In this document: piece by piece, positions 2,301-56,223 of the stretch
How positions within the stretch are numbered: the stretch's first letter is position 1
Layout: each line of letters opens with the position of its first letter
From: an uncultured Candidatus Saccharibacteria bacterium
GTDB lineage: Bacteria; Patescibacteriota; Minisyncoccia; Phycocordibacterales; UBA2100
Length of the DNA stretch: 64,000 bases
Direction of reading: 5' to 3'
Assembly (NCBI GenBank): GCA_964654205.1
Contig: CAZZHR010000001.1
Coordinates: 1,953 to 65,952 of the forward strand
Program-made: the position numbers and the translations under genes
Notes under the pieces: model-generated
What the model was told of the DNA's origin: nothing
The model's database searches: none
Seen by the model: the letters and a program-made list of their open reading frames with translations, nothing else

Positions 2301-4709
2301 ATGACCGCCAGACTCTTCAGGCGTACGAGGCGCCTTTTCTCTCGTCTCCCCGAGTGGGTGCGCCTTATCTTCGTAGGCCTCATCGCGCTCGGTTTCTTTA
2401 CGCTCGCGAGCGTGACCGCGTGGGCTGCTTTCACTCCTATCCCATCGATAGACAACTTCGAGAATCGTGCGGTCGCACAGTCGACCAAGATTTTCGACCG
2501 CACCGGCAACATCGTCCTCTACGACGTACACGGGAGCATGCGGCGCACCGCTGTTCCGCTCGACAGCATCTCGCCGAACATCCAGAAAGCAACAATCGCT
2601 ATCGAAGATGCGACATTTTACACGCACTACGGGTTCCGTCCGCTCGCATTTATGCGCGCCGTGTGGACCAACCTCACGACGGGTGACCTCCTCGGCGGCC
2701 AGGGCGGCTCGACAATCACGCAGCAGGTGGTAAAGAACGCACTCCTCACGCAGGACAAAAAGGTTACCCGAAAGATAAAGGAGATTATTCTCGCCATCAG
2801 GCTCGAGCGTGTCTACACGAAAGACCAGATACTCACCACGTACCTCAACGAGAATCCGTACGGTGGGACGATATACGGCGTGCAAGAAGCGAGCCAATAT
2901 TTCTTCGGCGTCGACGCGAAAGATGTGACGCTCGCGCAATCCGCCTACCTCGCGGCGCTCCCGCAAGCGCCCACGCGCTATTCCCCCTACGGCAACAACC
3001 GCGACCTCCTCGAGCGCAGGAAGAACCTTGTGCTCGACAAAATGCTCGAGCATCAGTTCATCACGCAGGAAGAGCACGAACAGGCGAAGGATGAGGTCGT
3101 GCAGTTTAAGGACGAGGCCGATGCGGGTATCAAAGCGCCGCACTTTGTCTTCTACATACGCGAGTACCTCGAGAGTAAATACGGCGTCGATGCAGTGAAT
3201 CGCGAGGGGCTCCGCGCAATCACCACGCTCGACTATGATCTGCAGAAAAAAGCCGAGGAAATCGTGGGTAAATACGCACCAGGCATGGAGGCCAATTTCA
3301 ACGCGAGCAACCAGGGAATGGTCGCCATCGACCCGACATCGGGACAAATCCTCGCGATGGTCGGCTCACGCGGGTATTTCGACGACCGCATCGAGGGCAA
3401 GGTCAACGTCACCACCTCGTACCAACAGCCAGGCTCCGCATTTAAGCCGTTCGTCTACGCTGCCGCACTTGAGAAGGGCTACACGCCAGAGACCGTCCTC
3501 TTCGACGTGCCCACGCAATTCTCCACAGCGTGCCAGCCGTACGAGGTCACGAATTCGACACCGCCATGTTACGCACCCACGAGCTTCGACGGGCAGTTCA
3601 AAGGTCCGGTCACGATACGACAAGCGCTCGCGATGTCGCTCAACGTGCCGGCTGCAAAGGCGATGTACCTCGTCGGCATGGAAGGAGCGCTCAACATGGC
3701 CGAGCGCGTCGGTATCACGACGCTGCAAGACGCGCGCAACTACGGCCTCTCGCTCGTCCTCGGTGGTGGCGACGTGACGCTCCTTGAGCTCACGAGCGCC
3801 TACGGCGTCCTCGCCAACGATGGCGCTCGCAATCCGCACACGGCGGTACTGCGCGTCGAAGACATGCGCGGTAACGTGCTTGAAGAGTACAAGAAGGAGG
3901 AGACGCGTGTACTCGATCCGCAGATCGCGCGGCAGATAAGCGATATCCTCTCCGACAACGAAGCGCGCACGCCGGAGTTCGGGGCCAACTCACCACTCTA
4001 CTTCCCCGGCAAAGACGTGGCCGCAAAGACAGGTACGACCAACGACTATTGGGACGTGTGGATTATGGGGTACACGCCGGGCGTCTCTATCGGTGCGTGG
4101 GCTGGCAACAACGACAACGAACCGCTCGAGAAGCGCATCGCCGCGTTCATCATCGCGCCTATGTGGCACGAGTTCATGGAGTACGCGATGGAGAAGTACC
4201 CCGCCGGGGATTTCCTCGAGCCATCTCCGGATGCAGAGGCTGATTCACTCCACCCAGTGCTACGCGGTCAGTGGAACCCGCCGCCGGGCGAGGGTGTGCA
4301 CGAAATACTCTGGTGGGTCAACAAAGACAACCCGCGGGGCGGTGGAACATCGCGTGGCGATGGCCAGGTGCCGTATTGGGACCTCCCCGTGCAGGCCTGG
4401 GCTTCAGGCCAGCTCCTCGGAGCGACATCGACACCCGGCCAGGGCACGGGCTTCCGCATCCTCACGCCGGGTGCGGGAAGCTTCAATCCGCTGTGGCAAC
4501 CACTCTCCATCTCCGCGTACTACCCGCTTCCGCAAAATGTTGTCCACGTCTCGTACTTCCTCAATGGCGCGCCCATAGGGGCCTCGAGCCAGCCGCCATA
4601 CGCCATCACATACATACCCACCCTCGGCGGGCCCGCGACGCTTCAAGCGGTTGCGCAGACCATCCTCGGCGGTACGGAAGTCACCAGCATCCCGCTTACG
4701 ATTCAGTAA
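2301..4709 (+). CDS. mrcA: class A penicillin-binding protein (PBP1A; transglycosylase/transpeptidase) with C-terminal Pro/Gly-rich extension
   Basis: N-terminal TM anchor; GT51 motifs EDATFYTHYGFRP and RKIKEIILAIRLE; transpeptidase SAFKP and KTGTT motifs. About 170 aa low-complexity C-terminal tail. Confidence 0.85.
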   Translation: MTARLFRRTRRLFSRLPEWVRLIFVGLIALGFFTLASVTAWAAFTPIPSIDNFENRAVAQSTKIFDRTGNIVLYDVHGSMRRTAVPLDSISPNIQKATIAIEDATFYTHYGFRPLAFMRAVWTNLTTGDLLGGQGGSTITQQVVKNALLTQDKKVTRKIKEIILAIRLERVYTKDQILTTYLNENPYGGTIYGVQEASQYFFGVDAKDVTLAQSAYLAALPQAPTRYSPYGNNRDLLERRKNLVLDKMLEHQFITQEEHEQAKDEVVQFKDEADAGIKAPHFVFYIREYLESKYGVDAVNREGLRAITTLDYDLQKKAEEIVGKYAPGMEANFNASNQGMVAIDPTSGQILAMVGSRGYFDDRIEGKVNVTTSYQQPGSAFKPFVYAAALEKGYTPETVLFDVPTQFSTACQPYEVTNSTPPCYAPTSFDGQFKGPVTIRQALAMSLNVPAAKAMYLVGMEGALNMAERVGITTLQDARNYGLSLVLGGGDVTLLELTSAYGVLANDGARNPHTAVLRVEDMRGNVLEEYKKEETRVLDPQIARQISDILSDNEARTPEFGANSPLYFPGKDVAAKTGTTNDYWDVWIMGYTPGVSIGAWAGNNDNEPLEKRIAAFIIAPMWHEFMEYAMEKYPAGDFLEPSPDAEADSLHPVLRGQWNPPPGEGVHEILWWVNKDNPRGGGTSRGDGQVPYWDLPVQAWASGQLLGATSTPGQGTGFRILTPGAGSFNPLWQPLSISAYYPLPQNVVHVSYFLNGAPIGASSQPPYAITYIPTLGGPATLQAVAQTILGGTEVTSIPLTIQ

Positions 4710-4710
4710 G

Positions 4711-5808
4711 TTACCGGTTGAGCGGCATCACGAGGTATGTGAAGCTCGTGTCGGACACACCGCGAATGACGAGTGGCCTTCCCGGACCAGAGAAACCGAG
4801 CACGACCGAGTCCGACTCTATCGAGGATAGGCAATCGGCGAGGTAGCCGATGTGGAAATTTATGTCGAGGTCGTCGCCCGAGAGCGCCGCGTCGATGCTA
4901 TCCGACATCTCACCCACGTCGGCACTGCGCGCGGTCGCGGTGAATATTTTTTTCTTCGGGTAGATGTGAAGCCCGACGTGCATTTCACTGCCCGAGAAAA
5001 CGCGCGCCTTGCGAAGCATCTCTGCGAGGTCGTTCTTCAACATTGTCGCCTCAGAGGTGAATTTTTTTGGGATGATTTCCTTGTAATTCGGAAAGGTCGC
5101 ATCGACAACACGCGATACGAATCTCGTACCACTCCCAACCACCACCAATTGCGCGTCATCGGTCGAGAGCGACACAGTGTCGTCATTGAGCCTCTCGAGG
5201 ACATGGACGAGCTCTAGCGCGTGTTTAAGCGGAATGAGGAGTTCTCCCGATGCGCGCGCGCCTGTCTCAGACACCGTCTTTTCCGCGAGGCGGAATGAAT
5301 CAGTCGCGACACACACCATGGCGCCATCTTGTATGGAAATATAGATGCTCCCGAGGTCAGGACGTATCATCGAGGGAGACGCCGCGTATGAGACTGTTTG
5401 GATACCACGAATAAGTCTCTCACGGGCGAGTTTTATTTCCTTTTTGCCGCCATCACTCGAGAGCACGGGGAATTCTTCGTGCGGGACAGCCTTGATGAGA
5501 GTTTTTGTGCCTCGAGATTCGATAAGGAGATTACCATCTTCACTTGAAAGGGTAACTTTGTCGCCACTAATCGCCCGTATTGTTTGCGATAGGATCGCAG
5601 CGGGTACGGCGACTACACCTTTCTCCTCTACATCCCCCGCGATGGAGACCTCTATACCCGCTTCAAGATTGGTGGCGCGGAGTTTTATATCCTTTCCACT
5701 CTCCACAAGTACGCACGAGAGGATAGGGAGAGACTCCTTTTTTCCTGTAATGCGCTCAGCCATTAGGATTCCGCTTAGGAGTTTTTCTTTTGTTGTTGTT
5801 ATCTTCAT
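4711..5808 (-). CDS. dnaN: DNA polymerase III beta sliding clamp
   Basis: 365 aa; typical beta-clamp N-terminus MKITTTKEKLLSGIL...; lies immediately downstream of dnaA. Confidence 0.9.
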   Translation of the reverse strand: MKITTTKEKLLSGILMAERITGKKESLPILSCVLVESGKDIKLRATNLEAGIEVSIAGDVEEKGVVAVPAAILSQTIRAISGDKVTLSSEDGNLLIESRGTKTLIKAVPHEEFPVLSSDGGKKEIKLARERLIRGIQTVSYAASPSMIRPDLGSIYISIQDGAMVCVATDSFRLAEKTVSETGARASGELLIPLKHALELVHVLERLNDDTVSLSTDDAQLVVVGSGTRFVSRVVDATFPNYKEIIPKKFTSEATMLKNDLAEMLRKARVFSGSEMHVGLHIYPKKKIFTATARSADVGEMSDSIDAALSGDDLDINFHIGYLADCLSSIESDSVVLGFSGPGRPLVIRGVSDTSFTYLVMPLNR

Positions 5809-6117
5809 ATCTCTTTCATCCTATATAAAACTACTATTATTATTAGTCCTGTGTACACCGGGGATAAACAGAAAATATGACGGAAATGCTGGATGAATAG
5901 GTCTTTGCGTGGTTGTTGAAAACTTCTGCGCGAATCATGAACAAGTTGTTGGTAAGTGTGGTGCGTGAATATTTCTTGAAGTTCTCACACCCTTGTTCCG
6001 TGTGTTGTTCGACTGGTTGTACAGTTGTTTCCACAGGATATCCCACACTGTTTTGCACATCATACGCCGCGCCGATCGAGATAGGTACGGCGCGAACAAC
6101 GGAAAGAGAGTACATAT

Positions 6118-7470
6118 TTACGCGTGGATGAGAGAACGGATATGGTCGAGCTCCTGCTCAAGTGCGTTGTTCATCTTTATCTCCTCCTTTATCTTCTCGC
6201 ACGAGTGAATGACGGTCGTGTGGTCGCGTCCACCAAGTTTCTCTCCTATCGAAGGGTATGAGACGCTGAATTCTTCGCGCAGCACGTACATGATGATTTG
6301 CCGAGGCTTCACCACTTCTTTCTTACGCGTCTTTTCGTAGATGCTCTTTTCGGGTACCTCATAGTATTGCGCGATGCGGCGCACTACCTCGTCTATCGAG
6401 ACGCCGCGGTTCGGCTTCACGTTGTGTTTGATAAGAGCGCGTACATCGGCGTGCGAAATGGCCTTACCTTTGAGCTGTGATTTGCAGACAATCATGTTGA
6501 GTACACCCTCGAGTTCGCGGATGTTGCCGCGCACGTTCTCGGCAATGTAGAGGATGATGTCTTCGGGGATGGAAAAGCCATGCTGTTCTATCTTCGCCTT
6601 GATGATGGCGACGCGACTCTCGACATCGGGTTCCGGAATCTCTGCGATGACGCCCGCGGCAAAGCGACCCTTGAGGCGCTCTTCGAATCCTGGGAGGAGA
6701 CTTGGGTGCTTATCACTCGAGAACACAATTTGCTTATTGTTGTCATGGAGTGCGTTGAAGAGATGGAAGAGTTCCTCCTGCGTCTTTTCGGTGTTCGCGA
6801 TGAACTGGATGTCGTCCATGATGAGGACGTCGTACTGCCGGTACTGGTCCTTGAAGCTATTAGCCCTTCCCGCTCGCACTGCATTGATGTAATCCATTGC
6901 GAATCGCTCACTTGTCACATAGAGCACCTTCTTGTTCGCGTGCTGCTTCTTGAAGTGGTTGCCCACCGCTTGGATGAGGTGCGTCTTGCCGTGTCCGGTA
7001 GAGCCGTAGATGAAGAGTGGATTGTAGGTGAGCCCCGGGCGCTCGATGACTGCTTTTGCTGCTGCGTGTGCGAGTTGGTTGAAGGGCCCCACAACAAACG
7101 TCTCAAAGGTGTAGCGCGGGTTGAGGTTGTCGCGCTTGTCTATGTAGAGAGATTGGAGGTCGAAGGAAGCATTTTCCTGCGGCTTCTCGACTCGGGGCGC
7201 CCTCCTCTCCGCACTCGGGGCGCTCCTGTGCACGACGTACTCGACCGTCCGTATGGTGTTGTCGAGGCTGCGGAGCGCCTTGAGGATGAGTTTGTGGTGC
7301 TTTTCAAGGAGCCATTCCTTTACAATCTTCGACGGTACGGCTACCTGCACGGTACCCGAATCGCGATTCGCGATGTCGGTGTTACGAAACCACGTCCGGA
7401 AGGACGCCTGTGACGTTCCGAGCTCTATTTGGACGAGTGCGTTCTGCCATAATTCTCGATTGGTCATCAT
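6118..7470 (-). CDS. dnaA: chromosomal replication initiator DnaA
   Basis: 450 aa; AAA+ Walker A GSTGHGKTHL, box VII, C-terminal DNA-binding domain (...GEKLGGRDHTTVIHSCEKI). Confidence 0.95.
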   Translation of the reverse strand: MMTNRELWQNALVQIELGTSQASFRTWFRNTDIANRDSGTVQVAVPSKIVKEWLLEKHHKLILKALRSLDNTIRTVEYVVHRSAPSAERRAPRVEKPQENASFDLQSLYIDKRDNLNPRYTFETFVVGPFNQLAHAAAKAVIERPGLTYNPLFIYGSTGHGKTHLIQAVGNHFKKQHANKKVLYVTSERFAMDYINAVRAGRANSFKDQYRQYDVLIMDDIQFIANTEKTQEELFHLFNALHDNNKQIVFSSDKHPSLLPGFEERLKGRFAAGVIAEIPEPDVESRVAIIKAKIEQHGFSIPEDIILYIAENVRGNIRELEGVLNMIVCKSQLKGKAISHADVRALIKHNVKPNRGVSIDEVVRRIAQYYEVPEKSIYEKTRKKEVVKPRQIIMYVLREEFSVSYPSIGEKLGGRDHTTVIHSCEKIKEEIKMNNALEQELDHIRSLIHA

Positions 7471-49564: not shown

Positions 49565-49791
49565 ACGCGTCGTGAGACGCGCATCTTTTTACGCTCGGGA
49601 AAGTCTAGAAAATGGCTTAACTGCGCTGATTCTGACAAGTTCCATACGCATATTCGGATGCGCGTTTGTGTTGAATTGCATAAATACTAAGGTGTAGGTG
49701 CACTATATCACCAGCTGAGGTGGTAGGGAATAGGTGATAGGTTGTAGATATGAGAGGGTCAAACTATTCCCTATAACCTACTCCCTACAAC

Positions 49792-50364
49792 CTAGTTCAG
49801 GACTTTGTCGATGATGCCGTACTTGACGGACTCTTCTGCATCCATGAAGAAGTCGCGGTCCACATCTTTCTCGATACGGTCGAGCTTCTGGCCGGTGTTC
49901 TTGGCGAGGATTTTGTTGAGGCGCTCGCGCATCTTGAGGATTTGCTTGGCCGTGATTTCGATGTCCGCCGCCTGACCCTCCGCGCCGCCGTGTGGCTGGT
50001 GAATCATGACTTCGGCATTGGGAAGCGCGAAGCGCTTGCCCTTTTCGCCGGCAGAGAGCAGGACCGCGGCCATAGAGGCCGCCATACCGACGCACACCGT
50101 CGATACATTGGGCTGGATGTGGTTCATAGTGTCGAGTATCGCGAAGCCGGCTGAGACCTGCCCGCCGGGGGAGTTGATGTAGAAGGAGATGTCCTTCTTC
50201 GGGTCTTCGGATGCGAGGAAGAGGAACTGTGCGACCACGAGGTTGGCCACATCGCCGTCTATCGGACCGCCGAGGAAGACGATGCGCTCTTTGAGGAGGC
50301 GTGAGTAAATATCGTATGCGCGCTCGCCCATGGAAGTCTTCTCGACAACCATCGGCACGAGCAT
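49792..50364 (-). CDS. clpP: ATP-dependent Clp protease proteolytic subunit
   Basis: From the internal [53 protein letters not shown]...INSPGG aligns colinearly with ClpP; catalytic Ser context GMAASMAA, His in MIHQPHGG. Confidence 0.85.
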
Positions 50365-50603: not shown

Positions 50604-51356
50604 ATGGAAAAAGAGCTGCAGGACCTCGGACTTTCGGAAAAAGAAGCGAAAGTGTATCTTGCCGCTCTTGAGATAGGCCGCGCTACTGCAGACCAGCTAT
50701 CGAAACACTCGAAGATCAAACGCCCGACCACGTACGTGCAGCTGGAGTCGCTGATGAAAATGGGGCTCATGAGTACGTACGAGGAAGACCACAAGACGTA
50801 CTTCGCGCCAGAATCCCCCGAGCTTCTCAAGCGCCTGCTCGCCCGTCAACAAGAATCGCTCCGTACAAAAGAGTCCGAACTCACGGCGCTTCTGCCCGAA
50901 CTCCTGCGTCAGTACGAAAGCGCTGGCGAGCGTCCTGTCGTACGATTTTTCCCGGGGAAGGAAGGAATAAAATTAGCTAGGGAAGAATTGTTGACCACCA
51001 AGGACAAAAGTATAGATGCTGTTTTTTCGTACGAACATCTGCTCAATATTTATACGGAGCAGGAGCTTGATGAGTACTCACACAAGCGTAAGGGGTTGGG
51101 GATTCACTCCCGTGCAATCTATATGAATAAGGAGTTCTTTTCGAGAGCGGAGTTGGATTCGCTTACTGAGCGGAAATTTATCCCTCCGCAACTATTATCA
51201 CTCAACATCCACATTCACGTGTGTGATACGAGGACGACCCTATTCCCAATGGAGGGGTCACTATTTGCAATCATTATCGATAGCGCACAAATCGCGTCAG
51301 GTGTTAAAGCAATATTCAATTATCTTTGGATGAACGCGTCTGCAGGGCAAAAATAA
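50604..51356 (+). CDS. TrmB-family transcriptional regulator
   Basis: N-terminal winged HTH LGLSEKEAKVYLAALEIGRATADQLSKHSKIKRPTTYVQLESLMKMGL typical of TrmB; 250 aa. Confidence 0.7.
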   Translation: MEKELQDLGLSEKEAKVYLAALEIGRATADQLSKHSKIKRPTTYVQLESLMKMGLMSTYEEDHKTYFAPESPELLKRLLARQQESLRTKESELTALLPELLRQYESAGERPVVRFFPGKEGIKLAREELLTTKDKSIDAVFSYEHLLNIYTEQELDEYSHKRKGLGIHSRAIYMNKEFFSRAELDSLTERKFIPPQLLSLNIHIHVCDTRTTLFPMEGSLFAIIIDSAQIASGVKAIFNYLWMNASAGQK

Positions 51357-51358
51357 AA

Positions 51359-51396
51359 CCGGGGGCGATGGTGCCGCCCCCGGCAGTCGTTGTTTG
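51359..51396 (+). terminator. hairpin terminator after the TrmB-like gene (could act bidirectionally)
   Basis: CCGGGGGCG-atggtg-CCGCCCCCGG followed by CAGTCGTTGTTTG; 2 nt after the stop codon. Confidence 0.5.
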
Positions 51397-52548
51397 ACCT
51401 GAAGTGGTCCAGAGACCCTCCAGGTGTCAGCACGAGGGTTCGGCTGACTTTCCAATCAAGCACGAATTGCCCTTTGGTCGTCTCGACCAGCTAGCAACCG
51501 TCGCCTTTGAGCAGCCTCCGCATGGAGGTCCTCCGTGAAGTATGCCCCAAAGAACGGGTAGGGCAGGGGCGTTTGAGCCCTAACCCGAGTGGGAAAGCGG
51601 ACGCTTCCCCATCTGTCGAGATACTAGCATAGTCAAAATGATTCGTCAAGACAATTTCGTGCAGGAGCCGAATCATGTCAAATTCATTTGTCAGTATATA
51701 GCAGTGAAATGGCTCTAATTAACGGCCTTTTCTAATGTGGATGGTTGATATGTCAGAAACACTTGACAAAATAGAAACGGCAGTATAGACTCGCGTTGTC
51801 AGCTTCGGTTGACTTGTTCTGCGAAGCTTTATGCGAAGCAGAACGCCCGCTTTAAGGAGCCTGTCTGCCGGATGGCAGAGCCCGCAAGGAGAAGCGGTCG
51901 TTGAAAACTAAATAGAGAACAATTCGAATCTTGAACGTCTGGCGGCATGGAATGGCCGACAGACGCTAGAAACCGGCGAGCGTGTCCTGCGCCTCCCCCC
52001 TGAAGAGCAATCTTTCGGGGGGCGGGCGCAGGGCGCACTCGCGATTCCTTGCCCGCGCATCAGTGCGACTTCGCTACCAATAGAAGGCACACATTCGCCA
52101 ACATTTTTCGTACGCGAAGCTTTCTCACGGTGCGTGGCAAAGGGATCCCCTTCGGGGTCCTTGTGGGTTGCCATCGACAACCTTCTCACCGCTCCAGGCG
52201 GCATTGGAGAGAAGAAACAGTAGGGCGCGCGGCATACGCTGCGTGTGTACGCTGTTTTCGAGAATCCTGGTGTGACCATGACGGTTGCATTGGGTGCGGA
52301 ATGGAGCTCCGTGCGTGCTAGTGGGCGACGGCCCGGCATGCAAAGGGGGACGGCGGGCTGCGCAGCTTGTCGTCACAACCCCAGCTCCTGCAATTCCGGT
52401 GCGGCTCATGAGAATGGGTCTGGCGCACCGATGAGGGCGGCTGGCGCGCGAAAGCGCGACGCCGCCCGACCAATGTTCTTCGTTTGTGAATGGCGGTGTA
52501 TGTCGCGCGACCGCGAAAACGGTGCGACACCACAACAAGGGAGGTTCC

Positions 52549-52680
52549 ATGAAGGAACTCTTCAAGGCCCTTCGGGGTGCCCGCATCATTGCGGAGGGTG
52601 TGGAGGGTGGTCGCAAGATCATTCACTACCTCCTCACCGATGGGCGGGTGGTCGAAATCGTCAGCACGCTGGCGAAGTAG
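52549..52680 (+). CDS. tiny ORF (43 aa) with strong Shine-Dalgarno site
   Basis: AAGGGAGG + 4 nt + ATG; MKELFKALRGARIIAEGVEGGRKIIHYLLTDGRVVEIVSTLAK. Nested in a longer GTG-start ORF-track entry. Confidence 0.4.
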   Translation: MKELFKALRGARIIAEGVEGGRKIIHYLLTDGRVVEIVSTLAK

Positions 52681-53097
52681 ACCGCAACAAATCCTACAGC
52701 TATGCCTCGCGGCTGAGAGTGCGGGGAAGTCGACACAAATGTCGGCGGATGTGGAGGGTCACCCATGGCCTACTACATTGTTGCCGGTGTCGTCTACCGG
52801 TCTTTAAAAGACGCACAGCAGGCTCAGCGCTCGAAGTAGCGCGGCTCTGTGTCACCGCCCTGAAAACCAGCGCAAGCTGAACAAGGGGTTGCCGGTTTGA
52901 GCGATGTGCGACGGCGGCGAGCCGAAAGAGCGCACGCGAAGGTCTCCGGCGTAAAAGCATGGCCGAGTGGTACTCGCTAAAAACCCGAGGCCGGGGGGAC
53001 TCGACCATCCTCCTCTTTCTTGAGCCCGCGATTCGCCCGCCGGCGAAGTCGCGGGTTCATAAAGTTCTCACAACCTTCACAACCCAGGGAGATGGAC

Positions 53098-53295
53098 ATG
53101 AAGGATTACGTTCTGGGCTTTGCGGTCGCGTGTGTGCTGTTCCTCGGGTACGAGGTGTACGAGGCGAAGCGGGTGCAAACCCCGCAGACCGGGTACTCCT
53201 ACCTCGAGGGGTGGCTGGACTACGGATCGGAGACCGACTTCTCCGACTTCGGGTACGACTTTTACGTAGACGTACCCGACGAAATCCCGACGTAA
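53098..53295 (+). CDS. small membrane protein (~65 aa) with acidic/aromatic C-terminus
   Basis: AGGGAG + 7 nt + ATG; one TM (VLGFAVACVLFLGY) then a D/E/Y/F-rich tail. The ATG at 53092 lies too close to the Shine-Dalgarno site. Confidence 0.45.
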   Translation: MKDYVLGFAVACVLFLGYEVYEAKRVQTPQTGYSYLEGWLDYGSETDFSDFGYDFYVDVPDEIPT

Positions 53296-53317
53296 CCGCA
53301 GGGCGACGGACTTCGCC

Positions 53318-53363
53318 CACTCATTTCAGCTCGCGAATGGTCGTGGGTCGATAGAGATAGGAG
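53318..53363 (+). repeat. direct repeat copy 1 (~40-46 bp) containing a Shine-Dalgarno-like GGAG
   Basis: TTTCAGCTCGCGAATGGTCGTGGGTCGATAGAGATAGGAG; 37/40 identical to copy 2 at 54279-54318. Confidence 0.7.
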
Positions 53364-53454
53364 ATGCCCGATAAAAATTCTCAACCTCACCCAACATGCT
53401 GCGACTGCCGACCAGGCGGCGGCCGGTGTCTACGAGCCCACCGATAAAAAGCTC

Positions 53455-53829
53455 GTGCAGGCGCTCATTACGTTTGATGAGTTGCCGAGTGCTGACCTCA
53501 TCCGTCAGCGCGCCGAGGAGCTTGCTCGGTTCGCAAAAGCGACCGATGCTGAGGCCGTCATGGTTGGCGGCGCGCCCTTCTTCATGGCGCCCCTTGAGGC
53601 CGCACTGCGTGCGGTGAACATCATTCCGGTCTATGCATTCTCCAAGCGCGAAAGCGTGGAAGAGAAGCAGCCGGACGGGTCGGTCAAAAAGACCCAGGTG
53701 TTCAAACACGCAGGGTTCGTGCCCGCTTGCGATTGCGGCGGTGCGACCGGTTCTTTCCCGAGCGAAGAACTCGGGACTCTTTTTCAGGACATCGTTGGAG
53801 TCGGACAGACGTCCGGCGCGGTGTGCTGA
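53455..53829 (+). CDS. hypothetical protein; N-terminus unresolved (frame opens at 53296; an ATA at 53371 follows a Shine-Dalgarno site)
   Basis: Protein-like composition extends upstream of the GTG at 53455 back to ...KILNLTQHAATADQAAAGVYEPTDKK... without any ATG/GTG/TTG. AGGAG at 53359-53363 with ATA 7 nt downstream. Confidence 0.35.
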   Translation: MQALITFDELPSADLIRQRAEELARFAKATDAEAVMVGGAPFFMAPLEAALRAVNIIPVYAFSKRESVEEKQPDGSVKKTQVFKHAGFVPACDCGGATGSFPSEELGTLFQDIVGVGQTSGAVC

Positions 53830-53841
53830 TAGGAGGGAAGC

Positions 53842-54138
53842 ATGGACGATCGAATGATTGCCGAAATCTACTGCCTGCAAGAGGGCGGTACCGTGTACGC
53901 GCGCGTCGGATGGGACGATGCCGTGGAAACATGCAGCCAAGTAATTCGGAGTTCGGTCCACTGGACGCGCGACGAAAAGTCCCCGCGCGAGCGCAATTTC
54001 CGGTGTGACGTCTCGGCTCTCTGGGTCAAAAAATATGCGGACAGGAAAGTCCCGCCAAAGGGTGCCGAACGCATGTTCGCGTTCGTGACGGTCGACAAAG
54101 TCACGGGCAAAATCAGAACATTGGAGGTGATGAGATGA
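53842..54138 (+). CDS. hypothetical protein (98 aa)
   Basis: TAGGAGGG Shine-Dalgarno + 5 nt + ATG; stop overlaps the next start (ATGA), indicating translational coupling. Confidence 0.45.
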   Translation: MDDRMIAEIYCLQEGGTVYARVGWDDAVETCSQVIRSSVHWTRDEKSPRERNFRCDVSALWVKKYADRKVPPKGAERMFAFVTVDKVTGKIRTLEVMR

Positions 54139-54551
54139 GAATCGAAATCGTGGCCCCGAAGCGCCGCAGCGATGCGGCGCGCGTTCTCGCCGATCGACGG
54201 TATCACCACCGCGTCGCGCGCAACAAGAAGACGTACTCCCGCAAAGGGAGAATCTCCTCGAAGAAATTCGAGGACTCTTTTCAGCTCGCGAATGGTCGTG
54301 GGTTGATAGAGATGGAGGCGTGTCATACGCACCGCATTCGGACTGTTCCTTATCGCCCTCTGGGCGTTCTACGCGGAATACATGGTCGACATGTATCCGC
54401 GCTACGCAGCGTCGCCGTACGGCTGGCCTTCGCTGGTCTTGTGGTGGGCCAACTTCGTCGGCGTCACCGGCGGATGCCTTTACGCCTCGTACATCTTTCT
54501 TCGCCCCCGGTCACACCGGGGGTGATTTTTTATGGCACAGATAATGTTTGA
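54135..54551 (+). CDS. hypothetical basic protein; C-terminal extent doubtful
   Basis: GGAGGTGA + 4 nt + ATG. The N-half (MRIEIVAPKRRSDAARVLADRRYHHRVARNKKTYSRKGR...) is protein-like; after the direct repeat the frame reads as low-quality sequence while a membrane-protein-like frame (+1) opens. Confidence 0.3.
   Translation: MRIEIVAPKRRSDAARVLADRRYHHRVARNKKTYSRKGRISSKKFEDSFQLANGRGLIEMEACHTHRIRTVPYRPLGVLRGIHGRHVSALRSVAVRLAFAGLVVGQLRRRHRRMPLRLVHLSSPPVTPGVIFYGTDNV
54273..54318 (+). repeat. direct repeat copy 2
   Basis: TTTCAGCTCGCGAATGGTCGTGGGTTGATAGAGATGGAGG; 955 bp downstream of copy 1. Confidence 0.7.
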
Positions 54552-54609
54552 AAAGAAAACGCGGCTGGTCGGGAGACCAGCCGCGTGAAGCGTCGAGAAC
54601 ATGAGAACT

Positions 54610-55710
54610 TTAAGCGCGCTTTTTGGCGTCTTCGCGCGCCTGCCTACGGCGAATCATGAGGAGTGCCCAGTGCCCCGCTCGATACGTGTATCGGAGCGGG
54701 TACGTGACATACCGAACGATGCGCCAGAGGATTTCAAGGACGACCATGACAGGCCACGCGACAATCATCGCGAGAACGAGCACGCCGACCCATCCCCACA
54801 TACCGATTTGTTCTGCGACCCACGCCGCGCCCGAGAGCACGAAGAGGGGGTCGTAGACGAGCATCGCGAGTGTCGCGAACGCGCCTGCGGTAAGCGTGAT
54901 TTTGCCCACCGTGTGCACGGTGCTCGTGGCCGCCTTGACCTTGGTCCACAGTGCCACGCCCTTGGTAGCCTTCGCAACTTTGAGCGAGCGAGTGATAAGG
55001 CTCGTCGCCCCGAAGACGATGATGCCCACATCGAGTGTCGCGTGTGCAACTTCGCCCCACGTCGGTCGCTCGCCGCGCACGATGCGCTCCTCGAGGTCGG
55101 TGATGCCACCCGTGAAGAGTCGGATGCCGACGCCGAGGGAACTGCGAATCGGATTGCGACGCATCACGCCGTCAACAAGCTCGAAGCGTGCGAGGAGTTC
55201 GTGCCCCAAGCGCTTGAGTTCTTTGATGGCGATGACTCCGTACTCATCTTTCGTGAGTGCCGGAACTCCTGGCTTGCCGCGCAGTCTCTCCATGATGCTC
55301 TGAAACCCGGCATACATGTCGAATGCGGCGGAGCCGTTGGTGCGGTAGTACTCGATGAGCGGAAGTGCCTCGTGCGGATGTTGCGCGAGAACCTCGTGGA
55401 ACTCTTTCATGTCGCCGTAGGCTCTGAAGAGTTCCGCGGCGATTTTCGGGTACCGTTTCGCCGCGAGGTAAGACTCCAGGCCGAACGTGCTGCAGATCGA
55501 GAGTGTGTCCGGAGCTACCGCACGCTTGGCCTCGGGCGCGAGAGGGCAGTGGTCGGCGGTATTACCAGCAAGTGCGGTCGTAATTGCCAGGAGCTCGAAG
55601 TCTTGCTTGCCACGCAGCTGCCAGAAAAATGTAGCTGCGAGGGCGATGATGAGCGCGTAGACGGAGACGCGTCCAAGCGTCTCGCCGGATACTTTCAAGC
55701 GCAGACGCAT
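54610..55710 (-). CDS. hypothetical polytopic membrane protein
   Basis: Several TM helices (YALIIALAATFFW..., GIIVFGATSLI..., GWVGVLVLAMIVAWPVMVVLEILW). Start set at the internal ATG (MRLRLKVSG...). Confidence 0.45.
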   Translation of the reverse strand: MRLRLKVSGETLGRVSVYALIIALAATFFWQLRGKQDFELLAITTALAGNTADHCPLAPEAKRAVAPDTLSICSTFGLESYLAAKRYPKIAAELFRAYGDMKEFHEVLAQHPHEALPLIEYYRTNGSAAFDMYAGFQSIMERLRGKPGVPALTKDEYGVIAIKELKRLGHELLARFELVDGVMRRNPIRSSLGVGIRLFTGGITDLEERIVRGERPTWGEVAHATLDVGIIVFGATSLITRSLKVAKATKGVALWTKVKAATSTVHTVGKITLTAGAFATLAMLVYDPLFVLSGAAWVAEQIGMWGWVGVLVLAMIVAWPVMVVLEILWRIVRYVTYPLRYTYRAGHWALLMIRRRQAREDAKKRA

Positions 55711-55891
55711 AGCGTCCTCCTTTTGCTGAATGTCGATGATCAACCGGCCTACCTTATGCAATATTTCTCTTAAAGAGTCAATGAACGGTCCTGCGAGTGT
55801 CATTTACTTTTCATCAGATTGTGCTATAATTGAAGGAGTGGTTGTTGCGTGTAGCGTTTGCGTCCCACAGAAACATCCAACAAAGGGACTC

Positions 55892-56167
55892 ATGATGAAT
55901 ATTGCAAGGCATGACATAGACTCCATGCTCGAGCGTGGTGCGGCGGAACTGCGCCGCCGCGTTCCCGATGCGTCGCGACTGACCGACAACGACTTTTTGC
56001 ATGTCGCGGACATGTTTGACCTCCCGCTCGACGAGCGGGTCACGAACTGTCCGGTTCGTCGCGTTCTCTTCGTGCGCGCTTACCGCGCAGAGGAGAACGT
56101 GGATTTCACGCTGCTTCACAGCTTGGTGTGGCAGCGCTACGAAATGCTTGGCGCACTGGCGGCGTGA
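55892..56167 (+). CDS. hypothetical protein (~91 aa)
   Basis: Internal ATG pair (MMNIARHDIDSMLERG...); the upstream part of the ORF-track model is overlapped by the divergent gene. Weak support. Confidence 0.3.
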   Translation: MMNIARHDIDSMLERGAAELRRRVPDASRLTDNDFLHVADMFDLPLDERVTNCPVRRVLFVRAYRAEENVDFTLLHSLVWQRYEMLGALAA

Positions 56168-56223
56168 CATCGTTCTTGTGGCGTAAGCGCGTAGGGGCTC
56201 CCAGCTGGGAGCCTTTTGCTTTT

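Follow-up and report, generated by a model that had tools for sequence, protein, structure and literature searches.

How are seven very small open reading frames (ORFs), crowded on one strand and each led by a strong Shine-Dalgarno (SD) site, to be explained in a genome in which such sites are mostly weak? The question is raised by a 64-kb stretch of DNA (hereafter the window) from an uncultured Candidatus Saccharibacteria bacterium (contig CAZZHR010000001.1, positions 1,953 to 65,952), where these ORFs, here named A to G, span 52549-54525 on the plus strand. They lie between the gene for a TrmB-family regulator and tig, which encodes trigger factor, as they do in related Paceibacteria genomes. 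An earlier note, made from the sequence of this stretch, had proposed a phage-derived or toxin/immunity-like cassette, or else the remnant of an integrated element. The reading that we favour, at a probability of about 0.55, is that A-G form a regulator-linked operon of exchangeable small-gene cassettes, whose junctions would act as RNA, setting transcript ends and driving translation. From the sequences compared, arrays of this type appear to be characteristic of a clade of Paceibacteria, in the Candidate Phyla Radiation (CPR), and the element found at their junctions is an RNA motif that has no counterpart in any described family and was previously undescribed.

The cluster of small SD-led ORFs is as real as it first looked, and so is the ATGA overlap at 54135-54138, in which the stop codon of E (TGA, 54136-54138) interlocks with the start codon of F (ATG, 54135-54137). 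In what follows, L-numbers designate the contigs or loci compared (related loci of 12 kb; L001 and L002 hold the window's own D protein), and SD strength is the energy of the duplex formed with a generic anti-SD sequence. The seven ORFs are these:

52549-52680 (+): ORF A, 43 aa; SD AAGGGAGG at 52537-52544, -12.2 kcal/mol; a 40-aa orthologue in L003/L004 is 72% identical
52765-52839 (+): micro-ORF B, 24 aa, conserved peptide M[AT]YY[IV][VI][AN]GVVYR..KDA; SD GGAGGG, -9.8 kcal/mol
53098-53295 (+): ORF C, 65 aa, one transmembrane (TM) helix followed by a Y/D/E-rich tail; SD -8.0 kcal/mol
53371-53829 (+): ORF D, Csx20-like / PF27247 (MJ1673), the domain being residues 1-120; ATA at the start position (53371), SD -7.3 kcal/mol
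53842-54138 (+): ORF E, 98 aa, an SD-led orphan; SD TAGGAGGG, -10.7 kcal/mol
54135-54284 (+): conserved part of ORF F, an ArfA-like (DUF7230) small basic protein, its frame open on to 54551 with no conserved stop; SD GGAGGTGA, -10.6 kcal/mol
54325-54525 (+): ORF G, 66 aa, two TM helices; ATA at the start position (54325), SD GGAGG 6 nt upstream, -9.3 kcal/mol

Set against 63 reference ORFs of at least 90 aa, chosen greedily in the window, these SD sites are indeed atypical, as had been suspected. The reference median is -2.4 kcal/mol at the first start (-4.7 kcal/mol if the most favourable start among the first 50 codons is taken) and just 9.5% of these ORFs reach -8 kcal/mol or below, whereas the cluster ranges from -7.3 to -12.2 kcal/mol, with all seven starts in the top ~10% of SD strength in the window. 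The claim that the cluster is distinct from the surrounding genome therefore holds for SD strength but not for composition, since its G+C content (0.59-0.61) is close to that of the window (~0.58).

Two of the starts had been misplaced. D, which ORF callers list as 124 aa from GTG 53455, and G, thought to be a truncated 2-TM protein, have their strong SD sites in front of in-frame ATA codons (53371 and 54325), at distances of 7 and 6 nt, whereas their canonical starts have no SD (-0.3 and -3.5 kcal/mol) and, in the case of G, initiation at ATG 54382 would cost the protein its first TM helix. ATA thus stands at the start position, as indicated by homology and SD spacing in D and by SD spacing in G, each time behind one of two near-identical 35-nt repeat copies. 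Assembly errors are not to blame for these unusual codons, since the sequence of the cluster is 100% identical in two independent assemblies (SRR15237806 and SRR15237804, compared through exact-protein look-ups). The two ATA codons are either low-efficiency starts or the sites of start codons recently lost in both genes. Use of ATA as a general initiator was rejected, for it is no commoner after strong SDs in the window than other non-start codons, and so was a programmed frameshift from ATG 53364 into the frame of D (no SD-ATG spacing, no slippery site).

The boundaries before C, D, E and G carry copies of a composite junction element, four in the window and 78 in related loci, which was first noticed as spurious N- or C-terminal extensions of D homologues. 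From 5' to 3' the element comprises a variable GC-rich hairpin (H1), the tract CTYTWTTCAG, a long hairpin with a 10-bp stem and the sequence YTGATWGAG, which is followed within 0-40 nt by an SD and a start codon. The long hairpin is itself built from an outer helix of ~3 bp (P1), a conserved internal loop, the 10-bp stem (P2) and a freely variable tip, and whole inserted hairpins are tolerated in its loop. The window copies are the following:

52993-53064 (+): copy a, upstream of C; terminator-like H1 at 52993-53014, long hairpin at 53015-53064 with an extra hairpin in the loop
53301-53362 (+): copy b, upstream of D; H1 at 53301-53318, P1-P2 hairpin at 53320-53356, covariance model score 64.1 bits
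53756-53837 (+): copy c, upstream of E, divergent; terminator-like H1 at 53756-53776, long hairpin at 53777-53837 with an inserted inner hairpin
54255-54317 (+): copy d, upstream of G; H1 at 54255-54274 in the frame of F, P1-P2 hairpin at 54275-54311, covariance model score 66.3 bits

Copies b and d contain the 35-nt direct repeat mentioned above (53324-53358 and 54279-54313, 34/35 identical), the strongest repeat in the window, whose sequence also precedes genes in other genomes. Trained on 10 copies of the element, a covariance model detects three in the window and 2-12 in each related locus, always on the gene strand. Copy a scores 28.9 bits (model R1, E = 5e-6) with a fold z of -2.65, and copy d has a fold z of -4.0. 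Copy c rests on manual alignment and folding because the model gives it just 4 bits; it folds with a minimum free energy of -43.7 kcal/mol (z = -4.6) and has the same CAG/CUG base, flanked by CTCTTTTTCAG ... CTGATAGGAGGG. The two-hairpin fold is predicted for all four window copies and H1 is present in 75 of the 78 instances. Three of the four window H1 hairpins pass a consensus scan for intrinsic terminators, with tails (CTCTWTT) that are weaker than the genome's canonical T-runs. Rfam 15 gives no match at gathering score over the window, and at E <= 1 over 51000-55000 there is a lone, chance-level Pab91 match outside the elements.

The structure of the element has strong support from covariation. 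Among 32 distinct sequences, 95.2% of the cells of the 10-bp stem are paired and both sides have changed in seven of the ten pairs, as against 0/500 shuffles as good and 27-42% pairing in slid controls; P1 covaries too (CTC/GAG, TTC/GAA, ATT/GAT, CTGTT/AACAG). G-U is the commonest pair at two of the ten stem positions and U-G a frequent minority at three more, so that the complementary strand would fold badly and RNA of the sense strand is favoured as the form in which the element works.

Several other identities were considered for the element and rejected. It is not a self-cleaving ribozyme, despite the likeness of CUGAUWGAG to the hammerhead CUGANGA box (there is an extra base, no GAAA box and no Rfam ribozyme match), nor, on inspection, does its internal loop form a K-turn, the required G-A being absent from the strand opposite the 3-nt loop. 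A CRISPR-like or solitary repeat does not fit a spacing of 955 nt with genes inside the units and no array. A sigma-70, sigma-28 or sigma-54 promoter within the element has unfit spacings and would leave the SD out of the transcript. Covariation of the W in GATWGAG with the base two positions before TTCAG proved inconsistent. As a separate observation, a junction in L009 (6900-6960) has H1, a T-rich tract and CTGATAGAC but no P2 hairpin, and may be an element that lost its hairpin. The H1 before D (53304-53329) matches F-type H1 (54259-54284) at 19 of 26 positions, with compensatory changes in the arms from CCT/AGG to GGG/CCC, as though the 3' end of an F-like gene were its source.

What lies between the elements changes from genome to genome. 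L008 and L009 share 98.7% identity over 2.4 kb that end with the TTCAG of a junction, directly beyond which their genes are unrelated; 41 of 63 clustered proteins (the products of 59 genes downstream of elements, plus A, C, E and G of the window) are singletons; and L167, the closest relative by TrmB and tig, has neither D nor F. The order D ... F is kept among loci, with differing insertions in between. The view that these are accessory rather than housekeeping genes is borne out by this cassette-like, hypervariable content. The largest array seen is that of L094 (contig C687J35174_10012181, minus strand 2657-7266), with 12 elements in 4.6 kb, most of which have a different SD-led ORF within about 50 nt. 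Among its cargo are two proteins that, to judge by their N-terminal sequences alone, are receiver-domain-like, and a Cys-rich protein shared with L015; an F-like gene stands at the promoter-proximal end and a TrmB-like gene upstream.

The setting is stable. The D homologues come from sources named Candidatus Paceibacterota, Kaiserbacteria and others, which would place the window in the Paceibacteria/CPR. In the contigs that hold them, the neighbourhood comprises HU, RNase Y, ClpP, the TrmB-family regulator, the small-gene cluster, tig and NusA. The signals that would delimit the array as a transcription unit, together with the regulator gene, are as follows:

50604-51356 (+): TrmB-family regulator gene (PF01978, E = 1.1e-14), the sole neighbour recurring beside most longer arrays
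51763-51791 (+): sigma-70-like promoter TTGACA-17-TAGACT, 10/12 consensus matches; candidate array promoter
54501-54533 (+): strong closing intrinsic terminator, an 11-bp stem with 8 GC pairs followed by TTTTTTAT

A TrmB-like gene adjoins the arrays of L003, L006, L013, L071, L094, L097 and L167, recurs at loci found through the DNA motif alone, and is present beside an array in another chromosomal setting (TyrRS-YebC-TrmB / array / RuvB, in L150). The promoter-like site lies within a patch conserved with L003/L004 and its equivalent in L167 is TTGACA-N17-TATACT, while the arrays of L008 and L009 likewise end in a strong terminator. Ordinary neighbouring genes in relatives have TTGNNN-17-TATAAT promoters and T-rich terminators, whereas array junctions have neither. 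Downstream of the promoter-like site there is a small hairpin (51798-51813), directly after it, and then some 750 nt up to 52548 with no SD-led ORF and no Rfam match. Patches at 51519-51637, 51699-51802 and 51893-52062 are conserved in L167, L006 and L003, and 51763-52548 could be a long leader or a non-coding RNA.

Two of the cassettes can be related to known proteins. D is a Csx20-like, probably CARF-derived protein and, by homology, a probable cyclic-oligoadenylate ring nuclease. It matches the NCBIfam model CAS_Csx20 (NF040559; E = 3.3e-9, 37.2 bits) and the PADLOC Csx20 models (E = 2e-9 and 1.4e-7), and PF27247, whose model is absent from the local Pfam copy, is a precomputed Pfam match for the window's own D (contigs L001/L002) and for 120/120 listed homologues. 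These homologues start M-[KR]-I-L-N-L-T-Q-H, which aligns on the ATA of the window, and seven family-invariant residues lie upstream of the GTG chosen by ORF callers; every family-invariant residue is retained. The AlphaFold model is confident for residues 1-120 (predicted local distance difference test score, pLDDT, >93) and not for 124-152 (<50), a tail modelled as disordered, residues from 121 on being encoded by the next junction element. Csx20 itself has been shown experimentally to be a ring nuclease acting on cyclic tetra-adenylate, cA4 (10.1101/2024.09.24.614671). D resembles it and viral ring nucleases such as AcrIII-1 in its size (~120 aa), its confident alpha/beta fold, its matches to Csx20 models at E ~1e-9 and the occurrence of family members in phages and anti-defence operons. 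It differs in falling below the curated cut-off and belonging to PF27247 (MJ1673), in having ATA in place of a start codon, and in standing, with no CRISPR array or type III locus seen in the window, at a conserved spot beside housekeeping genes (its neighbours being TrmB, ClpP, RNase Y and tig).

F, a 138-codon ORF (54135-54551), is best read as an ArfA-like alternative ribosome-rescue factor, an activity suggested by its sequence family and by its unusual gene anatomy. It aligns with nine relatives over ~50 residues, and the profile of these 10 proteins has ArfA as each of its top five PDB matches (E = 0.08-0.15), pairs with E. coli ArfA residue for residue over the motif in hhalign (probability 64%, E = 6.7e-5) and, among 5.8e9 sequences, picks up proteins with the name ArfA or with PF03889 (E = 2.8e-5 to 5e-3). 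DUF7230 (PF23876) is matched by six of the 10 relatives (best E = 2e-7) and not by the window's own F, which has no Pfam ArfA match at E <= 1; PF03889 is matched directly by 0/10 aligned relatives. Among phage families, phrog_20887 matches F at E = 5e-4. Pairing of D with F appears to be confined to the clade, as it was not seen in 26 other loci with D homologues.

The anatomy of the gene is telling. H1 of copy d (54255-54274) and CTCTTTT form codons 41-49 of F, with H1 encoding SS[MT]RKFED, and the next in-frame stop is codon 139. In nine of 12 loci the first in-frame stop lies beyond H1 at a non-conserved place, and in two of 12 it is a TAG formed by TTTAG in the tract. H1 being in the frame of F before any conserved stop, F is therefore probably made from a stop-less mRNA, and this hairpin-in-ORF anatomy argues independently for RNA 3' ends at H1. 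ArfA, described only from some beta- and gamma-proteobacteria, and BrfA are both made from mRNAs truncated by a hairpin or terminator within the ORF (PMC8012679), and by analogy F would be held in check by trans-translation, as they are. F shares with ArfA the motif L.D..[FY]..RV..NKK..[ST]Y.RKG[KR] and a conserved part of about 47-50 aa, similar to active truncated ArfA, and with both ArfA and BrfA a hairpin or terminator in the ORF ahead of the stop codon. It differs in that it lacks the GKG insert, has its relatives in DUF7230 rather than in ArfA, occurs in CPR bacteria, and owes its hairpin to a repeated junction element shared with unrelated genes.

How might such an array be expressed? 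Transcription would start at the sigma-70-like promoter downstream of the TrmB-family gene, run through the seven genes and end at 54501-54533. At each junction, H1 with its tract would be a leaky terminator, or would protect the 3' end of the upstream cistron; the single-stranded pyrimidine tract would be the site of 3'-end formation, by termination or by endonuclease cleavage; and the long hairpin with its strong SD would give the downstream cistron a protected, efficiently translated 5' end. The element would thereby combine a module for transcript ends and stability with a module for translation (the fused SD), which would suit an organism with RNase Y. Each small cassette could be expressed on its own, whichever its neighbours, and this autonomy would explain the contrast between the strong SD sites of the array and the weak ones in the rest of the genome.

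Conserved hairpins between cistrons have precedents. The RNase III sites of phage T7 and the REP/BIME sequences are intercistronic elements of mRNA processing and stability. The array resembles such systems in having conserved hairpins between the cistrons of one operon, and a single-stranded linker between the 3' hairpin of one cistron and the 5' hairpin of the next. In the sae operon of Staphylococcus aureus, a downstream hairpin guides cleavage by RNase Y (PMC5449607), an enzyme encoded just upstream in the conserved neighbourhood of the array. The junction element differs from intercistronic processing elements in matching no described family, in being closely joined to a strong SD, in its conservation from genus to genus, and in that cleavage at the array junctions is putative.

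The main rival to this reading operates at the level of DNA and holds that the elements are recombination sites, single-stranded hairpins like the attC sites of integrons, so that the array would be an integron-like platform with RNA effects coming second. Several observations speak for it: near-identical strains diverge exactly after TTCAG; the cargo is hypervariable, mostly of unknown function, co-oriented and without promoters of its own, just like the small cassettes of integron arrays (including the integrase-less ones known as clusters of attC sites lacking integrases, CALIN), which also turn over at their junctions; the build is attC-like, a paired, conserved base being followed by an unpaired spacer, a stem and a variable terminal part in which inserted hairpins are tolerated; and there is the L009 junction, which looks like an element without its hairpin. 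Yet no integrase or recombinase is found among the called genes of the 12-kb loci L006, L008-L010 or L150, nor beside the window cluster, intI and attI are lacking, and so are R''/R' cores, RYYYAAC and GTTRRRY being absent from the element consensus. The array hairpin travels with the downstream gene, at the 5' end of this gene beside the SD and not at the 3' end as in integrons, its G-U/U-G-rich covariation points to sense-strand RNA, and the gene associated with the array encodes a TrmB-family regulator. Moreover, ordinary homologous recombination would also give breakpoints at the sole conserved sequence, and concerted evolution of the copies within a genome is weak (0.72 versus 0.67 identity, p = 0.06). 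We consider it doubtful that recombination is what the element is for, although the two roles could coexist. It is unlikely, on geometry and covariation, that the element is instead a DNA operator or promoter, each cassette being its own unit and the TrmB-like regulator binding the inverted repeat TTCAG...CTGAT. The outer flanks do form an inverted repeat, a terminator-like hairpin directly precedes each element and a TrmB-like gene is the one neighbour found beside most longer arrays, a layout (promoter, gene, terminator) that recalls phage morons. Morons are self-contained promoter-gene-terminator insertions, and the array units resemble them as autonomous small expression units placed between operon genes, each ending in a terminator-like hairpin; they differ in having a conserved structured RNA instead of a recognisable promoter or phage context. 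In many copies YTGATWGAG is separated from the SD that follows by just 0-8 nt, so that transcripts directed by a -10 box at that place would begin beyond the SD; the element has no -35/-10 pair at a workable distance, even though these genomes use canonical TTGNNN-17-TATAAT promoters elsewhere; and a protein-DNA site leaves unexplained both the covariation of the stem and loop insertions of 13-20 nt.

The origin proposed in the earlier note is now very unlikely, the synteny having largely refuted a phage or an integrated element. There are hints of phage, since D-family genes occur in a few of them (Rhodothermus phage RM378, whose protein is 47% identical from end to end, and Pasteurella phage Pm86), a csx20 homologue lies in an anti-defence operon according to a preprint, F weakly matches phrog_20887, and the cluster encodes small membrane peptides and basic proteins. 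Against them stands a chromosomal position (RNase Y - ClpP - TrmB - array - tig) that is conserved in several CPR genomes and across genera, and D, F, A and B have orthologues in this same context, an outcome that the earlier note had itself named as refuting its proposal. No tRNA, integrase or att-like site flanks the cluster as an insertion boundary, composition does not shift, and no phage structural genes were identified; a PHROG search gave no match better than the E = 5e-4 of F, and a search of 50,697 phage genomes yielded none for F. A degenerate DNA pattern of the junction element gave three loose hits in 2.9 million viral contigs, none upheld by the covariance model. Nor were toxin/immunity families detected in Pfam, NCBIfam or PADLOC searches. 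Hardly credible is the view that the operon is a small and ordinary one, with spurious ORFs among its members, SDs that are strong by chance, and two pseudogenes, D and G. D and G do lack canonical start codons, E is an orphan and the frame of F runs through the next gene, but seven of seven starts in the top ~10% of SD strength, the conservation of A, B, D and F as proteins, the retention of all family-invariant residues in D and a conserved, covarying junction element all speak against it.

The descriptive model is well supported, both for the regulator-linked cassette operon and its RNA junctions and for what D and F are. Several points nevertheless weigh against our reading as a whole. We infer the promoter, co-transcription, the positions of RNA ends, the function of the junction and the activities of D and F. 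As U-tracts, the tails of H1 (CTCTTTTCAG) fall well short of those of the genome's canonical terminators. Masking of the SD by the hairpin, a candidate general function, was rejected (mean paired probability 0.53, strongly paired in 24%); the SD of E does pair with the pyrimidine tract in the minimum free energy structure. The strong sequence conservation of the base and flanks of the hairpin across genera points to a specific trans-acting partner. The ATA starts may mean that D and G are being lost or are barely expressed. D scores 37.2 bits where the curated Csx20 cut-off is 70, its fold search gives weak CARF matches (Cam1, Csm6, Crn1/Sso2081; E 0.04 or worse), and there is no CRISPR array in the 64 kb and no type III locus was seen, the large ORFs not all having been scanned for cas genes. 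The link between F and ArfA, finally, rests on evidence at the level of profiles.

The remaining ORFs of the array and its surroundings deserve a brief description. ORF A matches no family (Pfam, PHROG, NCBIfam, PADLOC). The peptide of B recurs in L006 and L003, where its codons show synonymous changes, and is followed by a conserved structure:

52891-52950 (+): 60-nt RNA hairpin downstream of B; RNAalifold on three sequences keeps 8 pairs through two-sided changes; no Rfam match

An invariant stretch, GUAAAAGCAUGGCCGAG, accompanies B and its hairpin (52765-52990), and the two together look like a leader-peptide/attenuator arrangement at the head of the array. ORF C is the peptide with one TM helix and an acidic or aromatic tail that had been predicted; comparable peptides, with an N-terminal TM or signal segment and a Y/D/S-rich tail, follow elements in L004, L006, L015 and L126, with no detectable homology to C. 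Homologues of E are absent from 1.84 billion representative proteins, apart from E itself and one spurious repeat protein. In L008, L095 and L145, 2-TM proteins follow F, none with BLAST similarity to G.

Downstream of the array, a convergent gene on the minus strand (54610-55803) encodes a 397-aa membrane protein with no family match and is served by a separate terminator (54559-54586); the SD that is strongest in this gene (-11.8 kcal/mol) precedes an internal start, which corresponds to the 366-aa form called on L001. As the only homologue found is in L009 (39% identity), this gene too belongs to the variable region. Between it and tig lies a small gene (55730-56216, plus strand) with a 145-aa ORF (a 91-aa form on L001), no family match, a TATAAT promoter-like site (55803-55830) and a terminator (56193-56216). 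Elsewhere in the window, a pyrimidine-rich repeat (CTATTCCCTATAACCTA...) occurs at 673-703 and 49764-49794 with 81% identity, the second copy coinciding with a 14-nt tandem repeat (49760-49794), and both copies lie directly 3' of minus-strand genes.

A wider interpretation, conjectural and rather improbable, would make of all this a hitherto unrecognised cassette platform of the CPR, in which a TrmB-type regulator is coupled to an array whose junction, as RNA, would punctuate expression and would also be the point at which cassettes are exchanged, with integron-like capture that needs no integron integrase, and in which D and F (the latter being the first ArfA-type factor outside Proteobacteria) would form a module for recovery from mRNA damage inflicted by nucleases.

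The significance of the locus lies at several levels. The junction element is a strongly covarying RNA motif without Rfam counterpart, and it comes from CPR/Paceibacteria, whose gene regulation has hardly been explored. Which cyclic-nucleotide signalling these symbionts face is a question posed by the presence of a Csx20-like protein, itself with phage relatives, at a conserved locus outside CRISPR. The link between DUF7230 and ArfA and the hairpin-before-stop design of F would, if true, extend release-factor-dependent rescue, and its feedback through trans-translation, well beyond Proteobacteria and Bacillus. The array, for its part, would account for a local anomaly in SD usage and suggests how organisms with tiny genomes may maintain and express very small accessory genes in a changing assortment.

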